A stretch of DNA of 64,000 nt from an uncultured candidate division Zixibacteria bacterium (lineage in GTDB: Bacteria > Zixibacteria > MSB-5A5 > GN15 > FEB-12): NCBI GenBank assembly GCA_963806185.1, contig CAWDXE010000004.1, forward strand, positions 160,001-224,000. Reading direction: 5' to 3'. Made by a program: the position numbers and the translations under genes. Under the pieces are notes generated by a model, which ran no database searches, was not told where the DNA came from, and saw only the letters and a program-made list of their open reading frames with translations. Below, piece by piece: positions 539 through 44,099 of this stretch. The first letter of the stretch is position 1; each line of letters starts with the position of its first letter.

Positions 539-1566
539 ATGCTTGAGACAATCATCATATCCTCCATTCAGGTCATATTCGTTATGGTGTGCGTCCTGAC
601 CGGGTGTGCCTGGTCCACCTGGCTCGAACGCAAGGTGGTGGGTCATATGCAGCATCGCTTCGGCCCCACCTATGCCGGCCCTTATGGATTACTGCAGCCC
701 ATTGCCGATGCCGTCAAACTGATTTTTAAAGAAGACATCATTCCCAGCAACGTCGAGCGTATCACCTACGCCCTCGCGCCGATTCTCGCCTTCATCCCGT
801 CGATGCTCTCGTTTGCCGTGATTCCGTTCTCACCGGACTTCACCGTCTTTGGCTACCACTTCAACGGCATGCTCTCCGATCTGAACATCGGCATCCTGTT
901 TGTCTTCGCCGTCACTTCGCTCGGCGTCTACGGCATTATTCTCGCCGGTTGGTCATCGGGATCGAAATACTCTCTGCTCGGCGGCATCCGATCGTCGGCG
1001 CAAATGATTTCCTACGAGATCAGCTACGGCCTCTCGATCATCGGCGTGATCCTGGTGGCCGGCACGCTTTCGATGCGCGAACTGGTGGACATGCAGGACG
1101 GGCACTTCCTCTATGTCATCCCGACTGGTTTCGTCTTCAAGGCAGCCGTTCGGCTTCATCCTCTATTGATCTGTGCGCTATCGCCGAAACCAATCGCGCC
1201 CCCTTCGACCTCCCCGAAGCCGAATCCGAACTCGTCGGTGGTTATCATACCGAGTATTCGTCCATGCGATTCTCGATGTTCTTCATCAGCGAATACGCCA
1301 ACATGCTGGCCGTCGCTTGCGTCGGCACTACCCTGTTTCTCGGCGGATGGCAATCCCCCTTGCCCTGGAACTTGCCGTGGTATTTTTTCGGCGACGGTGT
1401 CCTCTGCTTTCTCGCCAAAGTAGTGCTCTTTATGTTCTGTTATGTCTGGTTGCGCGCCACCTTCCCTCGGTTGCGCTACGACCAGTTGATGAATTTCGGA
1501 TGGAAAGTGCTGTTCCCGTTAGCTATTGCCAACACGCTCATCACCGGTTACTTCGTGTTGCGCTGA
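539..1566 (+). CDS. nuoH: NADH-quinone oxidoreductase subunit H (frameshifted near 1120-1170)
   Basis: [43 protein letters not shown] in ORF 539; [26 protein letters not shown] and PRLRYDQLM in ORF 949-1566. Confidence 0.93.
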
Positions 1567-1593
1567 TCGGATAGGCTGAAGGATAGATGTGTT

Positions 1594-2100
1594 ATGAAAG
1601 AGATTCTTAGAGCGTTCGGCCATGTGATCTGGAAGATGCCGCAAGGCTTCCTGGTGACGCTGAAGTACTTCTTTAAGAAGCCGGTTACGCTGGACTATCC
1701 GAAGAAGAAGAAGCCGATGGCCCCGCGCTATCGCGGCAAACACTACCTCGAACGTTACGACGACGGCACCGAACGCTGCGTTTGCTGCGGTCTGTGTGCC
1801 GCGGCCTGTCCTGCCGACGCCATCTACATGGAACCGTCGGAAAACGAAAAGGGCGAACGCTTCGCCAAAGTGTACGAAATAAATCTCCTGCGGTGCATCT
1901 TCTGCGGCTTCTGCGAGGAAGCCTGCCCCGAGGAAGCGATCTTCCTCGGTCGCGAATACGAATTCTCCGATGACAACCGCAACTCGTTCATTTATACCAA
2001 GGAGCAGATGCTGGTCCCGTACCCGCGCAAGGACAATCCGTTCAAACGGATCTACCGCCGCGTGCGCAAAGTCTACGGTGTGCCGGACGCGACACGATGA
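1594..2100 (+). CDS. nuoI: NADH-quinone oxidoreductase subunit I
   Basis: Two CxxCxxCxxxCP ferredoxin motifs, RYRGKH, operon position. Confidence 0.95.
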   Translation: MKEILRAFGHVIWKMPQGFLVTLKYFFKKPVTLDYPKKKKPMAPRYRGKHYLERYDDGTERCVCCGLCAAACPADAIYMEPSENEKGERFAKVYEINLLRCIFCGFCEEACPEEAIFLGREYEFSDDNRNSFIYTKEQMLVPYPRKDNPFKRIYRRVRKVYGVPDATR

Positions 2101-2684
2101 CACTCGACGTTGTCATATTCTTCATCTCGGCTGTGGTGGCCGTTTTCGGCGCGACTATGATGATCGCCCAGCGCAATCCGGTCGCCTCCGTGCTCTACCT
2201 GATCCTCTCCCTGGTGGCTCAGGCCGTCTGTTACGTTCAGCTTGGCGCCCTCTTTCTCGGCTCCCTGCTCGTTATCGTCTACGCCGGCGCCATCATGGTG
2301 TTGTTCTTGTTTGTCATCATGCTGCTCAACCTGCGCGGCTCGGAGGATTTGGGCAAGCCCTCTTCGCGGCTCGGCCGTTTCACCAAGGTGATCGTCGCGA
2401 TTCTCCTTGTCGTCGAACTGCTCTTCGTCGTGAAGAGCGTGGTGCTACCGGTGGTCCCCACCGGCATCATGGTCGCTCCCTCCGAGTTCGGCTCCGTCCC
2501 GTCAGTATCGAGACTGCTCTTTACGAAATATTTGTATCCGTTCCAGCTGACCGGCATCTTGCTCTTGATCGCCGTCGTCGGCGCCGTGGTGATCGCCCGC
2601 AAGGATCGCGATGATGACCACCTGGACGAGGAACACAAGCCGGAAGCGGTCGACGTTGACACCCCCACGAAGGCGGTGAGGTAG
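2097..2684 (+). CDS. nuoJ: NADH-quinone oxidoreductase subunit J
   Basis: VYAGAIMVLFLFVIMLL motif; ATGA overlap with nuoI. Confidence 0.95.
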   Translation: MTLDVVIFFISAVVAVFGATMMIAQRNPVASVLYLILSLVAQAVCYVQLGALFLGSLLVIVYAGAIMVLFLFVIMLLNLRGSEDLGKPSSRLGRFTKVIVAILLVVELLFVVKSVVLPVVPTGIMVAPSEFGSVPSVSRLLFTKYLYPFQLTGILLLIAVVGAVVIARKDRDDDHLDEEHKPEAVDVDTPTKAVR

Positions 2685-2687
2685 GCT

Positions 2688-2990
2688 ATGGTACCTGTCT
2701 CGGCATACTTGATTCTCGCCATCGTCCTCTTCGGCATCGGCACCATCGGTGTCATGATCTCGCGAAACATGATCGTCCTGTTCATGGCGATTGAACTGAT
2801 GCTCAACGCCGCCAATCTGGCCCTGATCGCTTTCTCGCGCGCGATTGGCAACATGGATGGCCAGGTGTTTGTCTTTCTGGTCCTGACGGTCGCCGCCGCC
2901 GAGGCCGCCGTCGGTCTGGCGATGATTATTACGATTTATCGCAACCGGGACTCGATCAATATCGACCGGTTCAGCATGATGAAATGGTAG
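2688..2990 (+). CDS. nuoK: NADH-quinone oxidoreductase subunit K
   Basis: [10 protein letters not shown] and [11 protein letters not shown] motifs, 100 aa. Confidence 0.96.
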
Positions 2991-3000
2991 GAAAGGTCTG

Positions 3001-4948
3001 ATGTCCGAGTATCTGTTTCTCATCCCGCTGCTGCCGCTGATCGGCTTCGTGATCAACGGCCTTCTGCTTGGGACGTCTCCCCAAAACGCTGGTCTCGCTG
3101 ATCGCCTGCGGTACGGTTGGCCTGTCCTTCGTACTCTCAGTCATGCTCTTCTTCCAGCTTAAGGCGATGCCGGTCACCGAGCGCGTCATCACTCAGATCC
3201 TCTGTACCTGGATTCCCTCCGGCTCGTTTAACGTCAACATCGGCTTCATGCTCGACCCGCTCTCGGCGGTCATGATCCTGGTCGTCACCGGTGTCGGCTT
3301 CCTGATTCACGTCTATTCCGTCGGCTACATGGCGCACGATCACGGCTACGGCCGCTACTTCGCGTATCTGAATTTGTTCACCTTCTCCATGCTCACGCTC
3401 GTGCTCGCCGACAACTATCTTCTCATGTTTGTCGGCTGGGAAGGAGTGGGACTCTGCTCGTATCTTCTGATCGGCTTCTGGTTCGAAAAGAAGTCAGCCT
3501 CCGACGCCGGGAAGAAGGCGTTCATCGTCAACCGGATCGGCGACTTCGGCTTCCTGCATCGGCCTTGTTCATCATCTTCTGGCAAGTCGGCTCGCTCGAT
3601 TTCCGCACCGTCATGGACCACGCCCCCACCGCCTTTGCCGCCGGTGGCGGCCTCATCACCGCCGCCTGCTTGCTCCTCTTCCTCGGCGCGACCGGCAAGT
3701 CGGCCCAGATTCCGCTGTATGTCTGGCTGCCCGATGCCATGGAAGGCCCCACGCCGGTCTCCGCACTCATCCATGCCGCCACCATGGTCACCGCCGGCGT
3801 TTACATGATCGCTCGTTCCAGTGTGCTGTACATGATGGCCCCCGACGCCCTTCTGGTTGTCGCCGGTCATCGGCGCCGCCACCGCCCTGTTTGCCGCCAC
3901 TATCGGCCTGGCCCAAAATGATATCAAGCGCGTGCTGGCCTATTCAACCATCAGCCAGCTCGGCTATATGTTTCTCGCCTGCGGTGTGGCGTCCTTCACG
4001 GCCGGCATTTTCCATCTGATGACCCACGCCTTCTTCAAGGCGCTTCTCTTCCTCGGCGCCGGGTCGGTCATCCATGCCATGTCCAGCGAACAGGATATGC
4101 GCAAGATGGGCGGCCTGAAAAAACATCTCCCGATCACCTATACGACCATGCTGGTTGCCACGCTGGCGATCGCCGGTATCCCCGGCTTCTCCGGCTTCTT
4201 CTCCAAGGATGAAATCCTCTGGAAAGCCTTCTCGTCGGCTCACGGCTCGGTCCTCCTCTGGCTCGTCGGGGCCGTTACCGCCGGTCTCACTGCCTTCTAT
4301 ATGTTCCGCCTGATCTACATGACTTTCCACGGCACCGAGCGGATGGACAAACACACCAAAGAGCATATCCACGAATCACCCCGGTCCATGACCGTACCGC
4401 TCATGGTCCTTGCCGTCCTCTCGGTCATTGGCGGCTGGATCGGCATCCCTCACGTGCTGGGTTTCCCCAACCTCTTCGAGGAATGGCTCGCGCCCGCCAT
4501 TGCCGGTGGTTCCGCTTTGCACGGTACCGAGGAAGCCCGTGCCGCTATGAGCGGGGGAGAGGCCGGACTCGAACTTTCGCTCATGCTGATTTCGATCATC
4601 ATCGCCGTCGTCGGCTGGCTCGGCGCCCGCTACTATTATTCGAAACATCCCGAGGCCGCCACCAAACTGGCCGAGCGCTTCTCCGGCTTCCGCAATCTGC
4701 TGGTTCATAAATATTACGTCGATGAAATCTACGGCGCCGTCATTGTGCGCCCGCTCGTCTACTTCTCGGTCTTTCTCTGGAAGATATTCGACGTGCTCAT
4801 CATCGACGGTCTCATTAACGGCGTCGCCGTCCTGTGGCGCGAAATTTCGGACACACTACGTTACGTCCAGTCCGGCCGGGTGCGCGGGTACGCCACCGTC
4901 TTCGTGCTGGGTGTCGTTGTTCTCGTGGCCTATATGGTCACCAGGTAA
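3001..4948 (+). CDS. nuoL: NADH-quinone oxidoreductase subunit L (frameshifts near 3070, 3560, 3865)
   Basis: ATG at 3001 ([16 protein letters not shown]); [65 protein letters not shown] spread across successive frames. Confidence 0.93.
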
Positions 4949-4951
4949 GGT

Positions 4952-6537
4952 ATGGGCATTGATATTCTGACATTAGTGACGTTTTTCCCGCTGGTCGGCG
5001 TGGTCCTTCTCCTCTTCGTCCCCAGCCGCCAGACCGACACGATCAAGGGCGTGGCACTGATCATCTCCTTCATCACCATGCTCGTCTCGTTTGCCCTGTA
5101 CTATCTGTTTGATCCTCTTGCCAGTGGCATGCAGTTCGAGCGCGTGATCCCCTGGGTCAGCTCGTTCGGCATCAACTACCATATGGGCATCGACGGCATC
5201 TCACTGCTGCTGATCGTCCTGACCACCGTCCTTTCCGTTCTGTGCGTGATCGCCTCCTGGAACAGCATCACCGTCAACGTGAAGGGGTATTTCATTTCGA
5301 TGCTCCTCCTCACGACCGGCATGATCGGCGTCTTCTGCGCCCTCGACTTGTTCCTCTTCTACGTCTTCTGGGAAGTGATGCTGGTCCCGATGTATTTCCT
5401 CATCGGGATCTGGGGCGGCCCGCGTCGCGTCTATGCCGCCATCAAGTTTGTGCTCTTTACGATGTTCGGCTCGCTGCTGATGCTGGTCGCCATCCTCTGG
5501 CTCTACTTCAACAATCAGGCCGCCTCGGGCGAATACACCTTTGACCTTCTGCAGCATCATGCAAACGCCCATTCCGCCCGGCGCCCAGCTCTGGCTGTTC
5601 GGCGCCTTTGGCCTGGCCTTTGCCATCAAGGTGCCGCTCTGGCCGTTCCATACCTGGCTGCCCGATGCCCACGTTCAGGCACCGACGGCCGGCTCCGTCA
5701 TTCTGGCCGGCGTCCTGCTGAAGATGGGCACGTACGGTTTCCTCCGCATCTGCCTGCCGCTGTTCCCGGATGCCACCATCACCTTCATGCCGTACATCTC
5801 GGTTCTGGCTGTGATCGCGATCATCTATGGCGCGCTGGTCGCGATGGTCCAGAAGGACATCAAGTCGCTGGTCGCCTTTTCGTCGGTCTCGCATATGGGC
5901 TTTGTCATGCTCGGTATGTTCGCCCTCAACCTTCAGGGCCTGCAGGGCTCGGTTCTTCAGATGATTAACCACGGCGTCTCGACCGGTGCGCTCTTCTTTA
6001 TGGTGGGCATGATCTACGACCGCCGGCACACGCGCATGATCGAGGACTTCGGCGGCATCGCCAAAGTGATGCCGATCTATTCCGCCTTCTTCATGATCGT
6101 CACCCTGTCGTCGATCGGCCTGCCGTTTACCAACGGTTTCGTCGGTGAATTCCTGATCCTGCTCGGAACCTTCAAGGCCAACACCTGGTACGCCGTCTTC
6201 GCGGCCACCGGCGTCATTCTGGCCGCCGGCTATATGCTCTGGATGTACCAGCGGGTGATCTTCGGCAAGGTCACCAAACCGGAAAACGAAAAACTCGATG
6301 ATATCGGCTGGCGCGAACGCGGCATCCTGGTCCCGCTCGTCATTCTCATTTTCTGGATCGGTATTTATCCGAAGCCGCTGCTGACTCGGATCGAACCGGC
6401 CGTGAAGCAGGTTCTGACTCAGGTAGCACAGGCCAAAAACGCCCATCTCGACAGCCAGTTCCAGATCAGAATGGCCAATGAAATTCCGGTCGCACGACTC
6501 CCTGCAGTTGCGGGTGGAGAAGGAGGCCGGCAAATGA
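4952..6537 (+). CDS. nuoM: NADH-quinone oxidoreductase subunit M (frameshift near 5555; true stop probably TGA 6535-6537)
   Basis: [41 protein letters not shown]; 3' end inferred from the ATGA overlap with the next gene and is uncertain. Confidence 0.9.
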
Positions 6538-6755
6538 GCAATGTTACCATCTACACCAAGGACGGCTGCCCCTATTGCGCGGCGGCTAAGAAGCACTATA
6601 CGGATTTGGGCAAGCCCTTCACGGAAATTAACGTGCACCGCACGGCCGGCGCCAAAGAGAAGCTGCTCGCTCTGTCGGGCGGCCAGAGCATTGTGCCGGT
6701 GATTGTTGAGGACGGCCGCGTTCTGGTCGGCTTCGGCGGCGGTTGAGGAATTTAG
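6534..6755 (+). CDS. Glutaredoxin-like selenoprotein candidate (Uxx-star type; CPYC ... GFGGG-U-G-I-stop)
   Basis: AGGAGG RBS before ATG 6534; thioredoxin-fold [15 protein letters not shown]...[12 protein letters not shown] 6744-6746 followed by GGA ATT TAG and a SECIS-like hairpin. Confidence 0.82.
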
Positions 6756-6760
6756 TATGA

Positions 6761-6778
6761 CGGCGACGGTCGTCGCCG
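6761..6778 (+). promoter_or_regulatory. Putative bacterial SECIS element
   Basis: Perfect 7-bp stem CGGCGAC/GTCGCCG with a GGTC loop starting 21 nt after the in-frame TGA; no U-tract, so not a terminator. Confidence 0.7.
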
Positions 6779-6788
6779 AACCAAAATT

Positions 6789-8240
6789 ATGACTGACTAC
6801 ACTACTGCTCTCTCAGTTGACATCGGCCTGGTGCTGCCCCAGGTGGTTCTCCTTGTCGCCGCCTCGCTCATCATGATCTTCATTGCCTCCGTCCGGTTCC
6901 AGCGCCTCGCCCCGTATATCGCCATCGCCGCCTTCGGTGTCGCCTTTGGCCTGTCCGTCGCCGAGTGGAACTACCCCAGCGCCGGTTTCGCCGGCATGGT
7001 CACTGTCGACAACTTCGGCGTCATGTTCAACCTGATCTTTATCGCCGGTTCGCTCCTCTCACTCCTGCTCGCCTTCCGCTTCCTCCATGTGAAAGGTCTC
7101 GAGAAACCGGAATTCTACGTTCTCTTGCTCGTCTCTACGCTCGGCATGACGGTCATGGCCAATACCTGCGATCTGGTGGTCATGTTTCTCGGCCTCGAAA
7201 TCATGTCCGTGCCTTTGTACGTCATGGCCGGCCTGAATCGACGTTCGCTCGAATCTAATGAGGCCGGCATCAAGTATTTCATCATGGGTGCTTTTGCGAC
7301 CGCTTTCCTTCTTATGGGTATTGCCTTCATCTATGGCGCCGCACAGACGACTGATCTTCGCCGCCTGGTCGCCGACTTCAATTACATTCAGGACACCTAC
7401 AAGATCTATCTCTATGCCGGTGTCGCCTTCATCCTGGTTGGTTTCGGCTTCAAGATCGCCGCCGTGCCCTTTCATACCTGGGTTCCCGACGTCTACACCG
7501 GCGCTCCGACGCCTGTCACCGCCTTCTTCTCGGTCGGCCCCAAGGCGGCCGGTTTCGCGGTCATGCTGCGGATCTTTACGTTCGGCTTCGGTCAGCTTGA
7601 AATCGTCTCACAGGTGCTCTGGGTCATCGCCGTGCTCACCATGACCGTCGGCAATATCCTCGCCCTCCGCCAGGACAACGTGAAACGGATGCTCGCCTAT
7701 TCCTCGATCGCCCACGCCGGTTATATCCTGGTCGCGCTCACCGTGCGCAGCAGCGACGCTGTCTCGGCCGCTATCTTTTACCTGATTGCCTACACGCTCT
7801 TCAACCTCGGTGCCTTCGCCGTTCTCGTCGCTCTCGAGACCCGCTCCGGCATGAAATCGGAATTCTCTGAACTGAGCGGCATGGCCAAGGCCAGTCCCTA
7901 CCTTACGGCCGTCCTCGCCCTGTTCATGTTCGCCCTGGCCGGCTTCCCGCCGACCATCGGCTTCGTCGGGAAATTCTATGTCTTCTCCGCTGCCGTCAAA
8001 TCCGGGTTTTTATGGTTGACTGTCATCGGCGTTCTCAATTCATTCGTGTCGGTTTACTATTATCTGCGGGTCATCAAGACCACGTACTTTGACCAGTACG
8101 ATGGCCAGGCTGTCCCAGCGACCGTTTCGCCGGCCCTCTTTGTAGTCCTCGTCGTGACTGTCGCCGGCACACTCGGCCTCGGCTTGTTCCCGCAGCAATT
8201 GTTGGATCTGTCGCGCGCCGCTATCTTCGCCTTCCTGTAA
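6789..8240 (+). CDS. nuoN: NADH-quinone oxidoreductase subunit N
   Basis: EAGIKYFIMGA, FKIAAVPFHTWVPDVYTGAP, KRMLAYSSIAHAGY. Confidence 0.95.
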   Translation: MTDYTTALSVDIGLVLPQVVLLVAASLIMIFIASVRFQRLAPYIAIAAFGVAFGLSVAEWNYPSAGFAGMVTVDNFGVMFNLIFIAGSLLSLLLAFRFLHVKGLEKPEFYVLLLVSTLGMTVMANTCDLVVMFLGLEIMSVPLYVMAGLNRRSLESNEAGIKYFIMGAFATAFLLMGIAFIYGAAQTTDLRRLVADFNYIQDTYKIYLYAGVAFILVGFGFKIAAVPFHTWVPDVYTGAPTPVTAFFSVGPKAAGFAVMLRIFTFGFGQLEIVSQVLWVIAVLTMTVGNILALRQDNVKRMLAYSSIAHAGYILVALTVRSSDAVSAAIFYLIAYTLFNLGAFAVLVALETRSGMKSEFSELSGMAKASPYLTAVLALFMFALAGFPPTIGFVGKFYVFSAAVKSGFLWLTVIGVLNSFVSVYYYLRVIKTTYFDQYDGQAVPATVSPALFVVLVVTVAGTLGLGLFPQQLLDLSRAAIFAFL

Positions 8241-42245: not shown

Positions 42246-44099
42246 CTACCGCACGTCAATCGCTTCGTGTTTGCAGACGGTCACGCAGGCGCCACACTGA
42301 GTGCACTTGTCCTGGTGAATGACATGCATCGCTTTCTTCTCGCCGGTGATGGCGTGATAGGCGCAGGCCGATATGCAAGCCATGCACCCATTACATTTCT
42401 CATTGATCGTATACGTAATCAGCTCGCGGCAGACGCCGGCCGGGCATCGCTTCTCGCGGATGTGAGCCAGGTATTCATCCCGGAAATACTTGATCGTGCT
42501 CAGGAAGGGATTCGGACCCGATTTGCCGAGTCCGCAAAGCGAGCCGATGACGATGCTCTGCGAGAGCTTCTCCATCTTGTCCAGATCGGCTTCTTCGCCG
42601 CGCCCTTCGCTGATCTTAACCGCCAGGGCGTGGAGCTGGTACAGACCTTCGCGGCACGGCACACACTTCCCGCAGGATTCGGTGACGAGGAAGTGGAGGA
42701 AGTACTTCGCGACGTCGACCATGCAGGTGCGGTCGTCCATCACAATCATCCCGCCCGAGCCCATCATCGAGCCGTTCTCGGTCAGCGAGTCGAAATCGAC
42801 CGGCAGATCGAGCTTTTCGGTCGGCAGACAGCCGCCCGACGGGCCGCCGGTCTGGACCGCCTTGAAGGGACGATCCTCGAGTATCCCGCCACCAACATCG
42901 TAGATGATCTGGCGAAGCGTGGTCCCCATAGCCACCTCAATCAGGCCGGTGTTTTTCACCTTACCGACGAGCGAGAAGGCTTTCGTGCCGGTGCTCCGTT
43001 TTGTGCCGATCGACTTGTACCAGCTTGCACCTTTGGATATAATGAGCGGCACGTTGACGTAGGTCTCGACGTTGTTGAGGACGGTCGGCTGGTCCCAGAG
43101 ACCCTTGACGACCGAGCGGATATATTTTGCGCGCGGTTCGCCGACTTCGCCGGCGACCGAGCGCATCAGAGCCGACGATTCGCCGCACACGAATGCCCCA
43201 GCCCCGCGGGCAATCCTGATGTCAAACGAAAAGCCGGTTCCCAGAATATTCTCGCCCAGCAGTCCCGCCTCGCGGCACTGCTCAATAGCTTTTTGCAGAT
43301 TGACCACCGCGAGCGGGTATTCCTCGCGGACGTATATGTATCCTTCCTTGCCGCCCACGGCGAAGGCACAGATCATCATCCCTTCGAGTACCGCGTGCGG
43401 ATCACCCTCCATAATGCTTCGATCCATAAACGCACCCGGGTCGCCTTCGTCGCCGTTGCAGACAACGTAATGGGTCTCGGAAGGCACGTCGCGACACGTC
43501 TTCCACTTCTTACCTGCGGGGAAGCCGCCGCCGCCGCGTCCGCGCAAGCCCGATTCGGTGATCTCGTCGATGATCTGTTTCGGGCTCATCGTCGTGATCG
43601 CTTTGGCCAAACCCTGGTAGCCGCCCGTACCGATATACTCACGTATATCCGCCGGTCGAATCTGACCTACATTGCGCAGGGCGATGCGGTGCTGGTGGCG
43701 GAAGAAGCCGATTTCCTGATACTTCTCGATCTTTTCGCCGTTAGTCGGATTCTTATAGAGCAATTTCTCGACAGGCTTGTTCTTTTCGATCGTTTCTTCG
43801 ATGATCGTCTCGACGTCTTTCGGTTTGACGTGCGTGTAGAACGTCCCTTCCGGGTCGATGATGACCAACGGTCCCTGTTCGCAGAAGCCGTGACAACCGG
43901 TCTCTTTGATATCTTCAACGGTGTAGCCATGGACGCCGCGATCGCGGATGATCTGCTTCAGGGCATCGCTCACCTGCTGGGCGCCGTTGGCCAGACAACC
44001 GGTGCCGCAGCAAACGCGAATAGTCTTGGGGCGCGCCGCCTGTTGGGCGAGCACTTCCTTCTGAATTTTTATCAGTTGCGAAGGTTCGGTAATGCGCAT
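42246..44099 (-). CDS. HydB/BfuB (long NuoF-like) FMN/NADH subunit
   Basis: N-terminal [2Fe-2S] (CCGTGC...GCHGFC), GLRGRGGGGFP, NGDEGDPGAFMD, GGPSGG, ESCGKCVPCREG, C-terminal 2x[4Fe-4S]. Confidence 0.92.
   Translation of the reverse strand: MRITEPSQLIKIQKEVLAQQAARPKTIRVCCGTGCLANGAQQVSDALKQIIRDRGVHGYTVEDIKETGCHGFCEQGPLVIIDPEGTFYTHVKPKDVETIIEETIEKNKPVEKLLYKNPTNGEKIEKYQEIGFFRHQHRIALRNVGQIRPADIREYIGTGGYQGLAKAITTMSPKQIIDEITESGLRGRGGGGFPAGKKWKTCRDVPSETHYVVCNGDEGDPGAFMDRSIMEGDPHAVLEGMMICAFAVGGKEGYIYVREEYPLAVVNLQKAIEQCREAGLLGENILGTGFSFDIRIARGAGAFVCGESSALMRSVAGEVGEPRAKYIRSVVKGLWDQPTVLNNVETYVNVPLIISKGASWYKSIGTKRSTGTKAFSLVGKVKNTGLIEVAMGTTLRQIIYDVGGGILEDRPFKAVQTGGPSGGCLPTEKLDLPVDFDSLTENGSMMGSGGMIVMDDRTCMVDVAKYFLHFLVTESCGKCVPCREGLYQLHALAVKISEGRGEEADLDKMEKLSQSIVIGSLCGLGKSGPNPFLSTIKYFRDEYLAHIREKRCPAGVCRELITYTINEKCNGCMACISACAYHAITGEKKAMHVIHQDKCTQCGACVTVCKHEAIDVR

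Follow-up and report, generated by a model that had tools for sequence, protein, structure and literature searches.

The gene that lies between nuoM and nuoN in the respiratory complex I operon of an uncultured candidate division Zixibacteria bacterium encodes a real, unannotated selenoprotein from a catalogued family of glutaredoxin-like redoxins, and its seat in this operon is conserved but dispensable. On the basis of comparative sequence evidence, we estimate the probability that its in-frame TGA codon is decoded as selenocysteine (Sec) to be about 97%. Selenoproteins of this family, called Uxx-star, are without a tested function, and databases cut them off at the TGA codon. The relevant features are given below by their positions in the window, by which we mean the entire 64,000-nucleotide stretch of DNA that was analysed.

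4952..6537, + strand: nuoM, which appears as two frames in the assembly, with a break near 5554
6520..6526, + strand: Shine-Dalgarno-like AAGGAGG, located 7 nt upstream of the redoxin ATG (6534)
6534..6755, + strand: Uxx-star glutaredoxin-like selenoprotein gene, 73 amino acids, C-terminus GFGGG-U-G-I-stop, match to NF041212
6567..6578, + strand: CPYC motif (C12-P-Y-C15), with C12, P13 and C15 invariant among 76 aligned sequences
6744..6746, + strand: in-frame TGA, the predicted codon for selenocysteine 71
6761..6778, + strand: bacterial SECIS-like hairpin 3ʹ of the true stop codon, with a 7-bp stem and a GGTC loop
6789..8240, + strand: nuoN, the last gene of the nuoA-N operon (TIGR01770, 444.9 bits)

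An earlier note on this DNA had described an open reading frame (ORF) with a CPYC motif between nuoM and nuoN, in which a TGA codon at position 6744 is followed by two codons and TAG, and this description is confirmed by the sequence and its translation. The two codons are GGA and ATT (Gly and Ile), and the TAG codon occupies positions 6753-6755. One contig from an independent run aligns without gaps to positions 6704-6854 and carries two substitutions. If the TGA were an ordinary stop codon, then the product would be a 70-amino-acid glutaredoxin as annotated by databases, in which the copies of this protein stop at GFGGG and usually bear the name glutaredoxin. We give this reading almost no credence, because these truncated database entries are opposed by an invariant arrangement of TGA, two codons and a stop codon, by a conserved Gly-(Phe/Ile) tail, by a covarying hairpin, by a homologue with Cys in place of Sec, and by a complete Sec machinery in the genome.

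The arrangement of TGA, two codons and a stop codon occurs in 89 of 89 distinct loci that are linked to nuo genes. The two intervening codons specify Gly-Phe in 68 of these loci, Gly-Ile in 13 and other pairs in eight, and the final stop codon is TAA in 47, TAG in 22 and TGA in 20. For comparison, TGA ends just 104 of the 280 Nuo ORFs in 20 operons. Among 80 metagenome homologues, 79 carry TGA, and the remaining one (L240:1280-1501) carries Cys at the Sec position and ends with GFGGSCAI-stop. The earlier note had named Cys homologues and the Sec machinery as the evidence to seek; the former are thus represented by one metagenome locus, and selA, selB, selD and tRNA-Sec are all present in the genome. 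The selA and selB genes are adjacent on contig C4, tRNA-Sec(TCA) resides on C7, and selD on C1 has its own in-frame TGA followed by a similar hairpin with an AGTTC loop. Across the phylum, selA was detected in 234 of the 251 genomes sampled.

SelB is expected to bind the hairpin that follows the redoxin gene and thereby to insert Sec71. The stem (6761-6767 paired with 6772-6778) is formed by seven Watson-Crick pairs, six of them G-C and one A-U, and the GGTC loop (6768-6771) begins 21 nt past the TGA codon. No run of U residues lies 3ʹ of the hairpin in the window sequence, and so the loop, its spacing and the missing U-tract are all as first reported. According to a figure legend in a review of such proteins (PMC13188914, Fig. 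2), bacterial SECIS elements have a loop of 3-9 nt, a stem of 4-16 bp and a distance of 16-37 nt from the UGA codon, as well as a G within the first two loop positions. The window hairpin, with its 4-nt GGTC loop, 7 bp and 21 nt, falls within all of these limits.

Taken alone, the hairpin is modest, with z scores of -2.1 to -2.4 and with 5-7 of 200 shuffled sequences that fold equally well. It is judged to be non-random because it is conserved across loci. Of 91 distinct loci, made up of the 89 nuo-linked ones and two from other phyla, 89 have a loosely defined SECIS-like hairpin, versus 17% of shuffled sequences. A strict version is present in 58 of the 89 nuo-linked loci, versus 11 among 1339 long ORFs of the genome under study that end in TGA. 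Among the 46 stems that carry a GGTC loop, six inner positions are paired in 39-46 sequences, and the pair types swap among G-C, C-G, U-A and A-U, although the 46 sequences are related and these swaps therefore do not serve as a count of events. Retention of the hairpin across loci and covariation in its stem bear out the SECIS assignment of the earlier note. The hairpin was also evaluated as a possible intrinsic terminator, and this was rejected: a terminator scan did not pick it up, a five-T run lies behind it in only one of the 89 loci, and nuoN starts 10 nt later. A second possible hairpin, at positions 6731-6748 of the window, encloses the redoxin TGA itself.

The 73-amino-acid product matches the NCBIfam model for Uxx-star proteins (NF041212) with 110.1 bits against a cut-off of 66, spanning positions 1-70 of 70. 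Together with an end composed of Sec, two residues and a stop codon, this match upholds the family identity that had been proposed from the sequence. Against UXX-star family 1 (NF041114, cut-off 72), the product scores 74.7 bits with its tail and 67.7 bits without it. Family 1 is tabulated with a UxxT motif and two Sec residues (PMC13188914), whereas the window protein carries CPYC and a single TGA-encoded Sec. We therefore file it under NF041212 only. The terms ‘nuo’, ‘complex I’ and ‘NADH-quinone’ do not occur in the same review, which cites Haft and Tolstoy 2025 (mSystems 10:e0141724), which may mention the gene neighbourhood, for several UXX-star families. We found no report of a Uxx-star gene seated in a nuo operon among literature titles and the openings of abstracts, and a term search of PMC13326102 on the same question gave zero hits.

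The nuoA-N operon of the window is complete with nuoE, nuoF and nuoG and begins approximately 6.5 kb upstream of the window. Its redoxin gene has counterparts that pass the NF041212 cut-off in 39 of 41 close relatives and in 173 of the 251 genomes sampled phylum-wide, with no match above the cut-off in the other 78. In the first 30 loci collected, all 30 redoxin genes adjoin nuoM, and 29 show nuoN at high identity, the other being cut by the end of its contig. The 89 distinct loci, which were inspected for part of the 173 carriers, include 86 with both nuoM and nuoN and three at contig edges with one of the two neighbours. The order nuoA-M, redoxin, nuoN is found in 20 of 20 full operons (ten families), and carriers span 11 families of the phylum, f17 being the eleventh, with NuoN proteins about 44-70% identical to that of the window. 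The synteny in relatives that the earlier note had wished to see is thus phylum-wide.

A second operon in the genome (C1:265011-274928) encodes 11 subunits, lacks nuoEFG and carries no copy of the redoxin gene. Two copies of nuoN are present in most of the relatives that were checked, and the redoxin gene is single-copy in most genomes. Among the 80 metagenome loci, 62 show nuoM or nuoN and 18 have no nuo neighbour. Two otherwise complete nuo operons from family f10 (L168 and L171) gave no match to NuoI, which may be missing, moved or divergent, and the window itself carries a NuoF-like paralogue (42444-43745, - strand) that is 42% identical to the NuoF of one relative.

In the assembly, nuoM lacks a stop codon ahead of the redoxin gene, and an ORF at 5541-6746 reads in frame through the redoxin gene to its TGA codon. 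Read in the +1 frame, nuoM would finish with EKEAGK-stop at TGA 6535-6537, in an ATGA overlap with the redoxin ATG. This ending resembles the EEAGK-stop of locus L075, and the ATGA overlap is the commonest arrangement of nuoM and the redoxin gene (22 rows of our junction listing). Judged from these homologues, the in-frame run probably reflects an extra base in the assembly. Frame breaks in nuoA, nuoD, nuoG, nuoH, nuoL (two) and nuoM (window 539-6537; C4:153521-160527) suggest that the assembly is indel-prone, and gene calls in it therefore need care. Translation of the redoxin may be coupled to that of nuoM, as the earlier note had put forward. The proposal stands on the junctions of relatives and is not read from the window sequence, because the assembled nuoM runs in frame into the redoxin gene.

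An in-frame ORF that joins nuoM and the redoxin gene occurs in two of the 89 loci, those of the window genome and of L088 (G144). The latter ORF has approximately 600 codons and carries TTA where the locus of a sister genome (L109) has TAA, and both in-frame cases keep the internal Shine-Dalgarno sequence and ATG. Fusion was rejected as a sign of function, since it occurs in two of 89 loci and each case is one change from the split form. These junctions nevertheless bear on the suggestion that the redoxin is a stoichiometric accessory subunit or an assembly factor, in the manner of NDUFA2/B8, which is a mitochondrial complex I subunit with a thioredoxin fold. Start and stop codons that overlap or abut would suit 1:1 synthesis, and the two in-frame loci could be taken as natural fusions to NuoM. 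However, a likely indel in the window and the TAA/TTA difference in G144 account for these fusions, and the C-terminus of NuoM lies on the periplasmic side, where a redoxin without a signal sequence would be badly placed. In addition, clean losses without compensating Nuo changes, and the many relatives in which nuoM abuts nuoN, argue against a structural part, and we regard this suggestion as improbable.

These losses are widespread. The nuoM gene abuts nuoN in the sampled members of eight families (f6, f7, f9, f10, f14, f15, f16 and f19), in part of f12 and in scattered genomes of f1, f3 and f4, such that the redoxin gene is absent from many otherwise intact nuoA-N operons. Decaying copies were also found, as deleted remnants in G136 and G142 and as a frameshifted copy in G132. 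In trees of Nuo proteins, carriers fall into several well-supported clades that are interleaved with non-carriers, with weak deep nodes, and the simplest reading is an old insertion followed by repeated loss. No Cys residue of NuoA-N is retained by carriers yet missing from non-carriers (20 versus 12-15 operons), and no alignment column of NuoA-N tracks the presence of the redoxin convincingly.

Homologues outside the nuo operon have other partners. Scans of 14 non-nuo metagenome loci and two named outsiders revealed neighbouring genes for P1B ATPases, for AspRS with an Fe-S aldo-keto reductase, for TrpRS, and for DUF498 with a URO-D-like gene. These neighbours are unrelated, and therefore the Uxx-star family is general, with the nuo seat as a trait of this lineage. 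The Uxx-star genes of L262 (2783-3421) and L263 (3553-3912) lie directly after genes of the DUF498 family, to which NDUFAF3, an assembly factor of mitochondrial complex I, belongs. In L113 and L114, a second, weaker glutaredoxin-like gene lies beside a fusion ORF with FTR-like and rubredoxin-like parts, which from its motifs we take to be a ferredoxin:thioredoxin reductase catalytic subunit joined to a rubredoxin-like domain.

Three homologues, namely the Cys form (L240:1280-1501), L083 and L255, are located directly downstream of heavy-metal P1B-type ATPase genes. This placement would agree with a protein that binds metals or metalloids through CxxC and its terminal Sec and thereby protects the Fe-S clusters of complex I against Cu, Zn, Hg or As, and metal ligation has been proposed for the Sec of UXX-star proteins, along with unknown substrates (PMC13188914). 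Such a shield is a long shot in our view, given an invariant cis-Pro motif, a canonical dithiol glutaredoxin fold, and nuo operons that, where examined, contain no metal-resistance gene.

We tentatively prefer the reading, held at slightly under even odds, that the redoxin is an optional thiol-redox helper for complex I. The evidence that links it to the complex is its fixed seat between nuoM and nuoN in the operon that bears NuoEFG, together with the lack of a copy in the paralogous operon without nuoEFG. The complex I role envisaged in the earlier note is therefore plausible as optional redox maintenance. As an essential role in assembly it is unlikely, because the gene is often lost while nuoA-N remain intact, because no Nuo residue co-varies with it, and because homologues elsewhere have unrelated neighbours.

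The same observations leave real, if lesser, weight on a different reading. Here the protein is again a genuine selenoprotein, but it serves the cytoplasm at large as a redoxin whose gene rides on a strong respiratory operon; antioxidant capacity would then rise and fall with respiration, and complex I would be no specific client. A single copy in most genomes, the unrelated neighbours outside the nuo operon, the absence of a co-varying Nuo residue and the frequent losses, with remnants in G136, G142 and G132, would all be expected of such a protein. It accounts less readily for a slot that is kept the same in 11 families, with NuoN identities of about 44-70% to the window protein, or for a copy that, within the genome under study, occurs only in the NuoEFG-bearing operon. 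Redoxin distances also track Nuo protein distances (Spearman 0.64), although shared ancestry alone would give the same result.

Retention of the gene was compared with two traits, which were first tested on 37 genomes, with the oxidase then tested on 251. The bacillithiol gene bshC is present in 20 of 21 carriers and in 10 of 16 non-carriers, and bacillithiol is thus a suggestive correlate of redoxin retention with many exceptions. For the oxidase, one order supplied 140 genomes (129 carriers and 11 non-carriers), from which three non-carriers (G021, G197 and G207) were dropped since an orthologous nuoN was not found; two of these three have the oxidase. The comparison covered A-type heme-copper oxidases, which were found in 91 of the 129 carriers versus one of eight verified-loss genomes. 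The Fisher p values of 0.002 for the eight losses and 0.006 for all 11 non-carriers overstate the association, because the losses represent about six independent lineages. The link fails class-wide: the oxidase occurs without the redoxin in f6 (3/3), f7 (11/14), f10 (3/3) and f14 (10/13), and three families that include carriers have no A-type oxidase (f11, 0/8; f12, 0/4; f17, 0/2). It was noticed post hoc, it fits a general redoxin equally well, and we treat it as a lead rather than as a rule.

An AlphaFold2 model of the protein (pLDDT 91.7) predicts a glutaredoxin fold in which the chain stops after strand 4. The residues that are invariant in 76 sequences are C12, P13, C15, V54, P55, G69 and U71. 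Residues 53-54 and 71-72 are both modelled as strand in the full-length protein, and the strand at 53-54 is gone when the tail is omitted; a relative that is 67% identical served as the control. Glutaredoxins bind glutathione in a groove at the residues that precede the cis-Pro. We suggest from the model that the Gly-rich tail bends back and lets U71 and G72 pair with residues 53-54 ahead of cis-Pro55, a pairing that would place Sec71 by Cys12. From this position, Sec71 could relay electrons to or from Cys12 in the manner of a tethered low-molecular-weight thiol or selenol.

Thioredoxin reductase or bacillithiol, in place of glutathione, would supply the reducing power. Both trxB and bshC were found in the genome. 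The search for glutathione synthesis covered gshB, which was not found; this is no proof of absence because the genome is 82% complete. Of the traits of a glutathione-dependent glutaredoxin, neither gshB nor, in the model, a helix past residue 65 was seen. Ferredoxin:thioredoxin reductase was considered as a reductant and rejected, as it was not found in the genome. In three families, represented by L265 (G104), L266 (G135) and L267 (G073), a bshC-bshA-bshB1 cluster lies directly upstream of selA-selB, and in L265 selD sits between the bsh genes and selA-selB. Several other genomes have bshC and selA within about 5 kb of each other, and in the genome under study these two genes are far apart.

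As a helper for complex I, the redoxin would maintain exposed cysteines of the complex in the reduced state in the presence of oxygen, a condition suggested by the oxidase comparison within one order. The parallel with Grx2 and mitochondrial complex I leads us to guess that its targets are Cys residues at the surface of the cytoplasmic arm or ligands of its Fe-S clusters. A stronger version of this idea is a dedicated complex I selenoenzyme in much of the phylum, whose Gly-Sec-Gly tail acts as a tethered glutathione and which docks on the NADH-oxidising arm to repair or switch thiols during oxygen respiration by these sediment-dwelling bacteria; we consider this version unlikely.

If it were correct, then a dedicated redoxin of this kind would be the bacterial equivalent, based on selenium, of Grx2 or NDUFA2, and would provide the first function for the Uxx-star family. 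Redox maintenance of bacterial complex I would then be carried out by a co-encoded selenoenzyme, through a tethered selenol that works without glutathione. The fixed operon seat in most of the phylum and the natural knock-outs, which are mostly oxidase-less within one order, name a candidate client and a candidate condition. If the link reflects co-expression only, then the gene would serve to correct annotations and to mark the lineage.

The operon described here has all 14 genes of the canonical nuoA-N operon in the same order, including those for NuoE, NuoF and NuoG, and differs from it by one added selenoprotein gene and its SECIS element between nuoM and nuoN. With the Uxx-star proteins of NF041212, the product shares a full-length match, a CxxC thioredoxin fold and Sec as the third residue from the end, whereas its gene is distinguished by a fixed seat inside nuoA-N. 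The modelled fold matches dithiol glutaredoxins and NrdH-like redoxins (cGrx1, cGrx2, E. coli Grx3, NrdH and BC3987) with TM-scores of 0.77-0.80, and these proteins share the CPYC and Val-Pro motifs. Compared with dithiol glutaredoxins, however, the window protein lacks the last helix, and its chain stops after strand 4 with a Gly-rich Sec tail. The closest functional analogy is to Grx2, a glutaredoxin that acts on the 75-kDa subunit of complex I in mitochondria (PMC2529008) and thus may parallel the window redoxin in removing thiol adducts from the NADH-oxidising arm. Grx2 is glutathione-dependent, contains no Sec and is not co-encoded with the complex, whereas the window redoxin is a predicted Sec protein encoded within the complex I operon itself.
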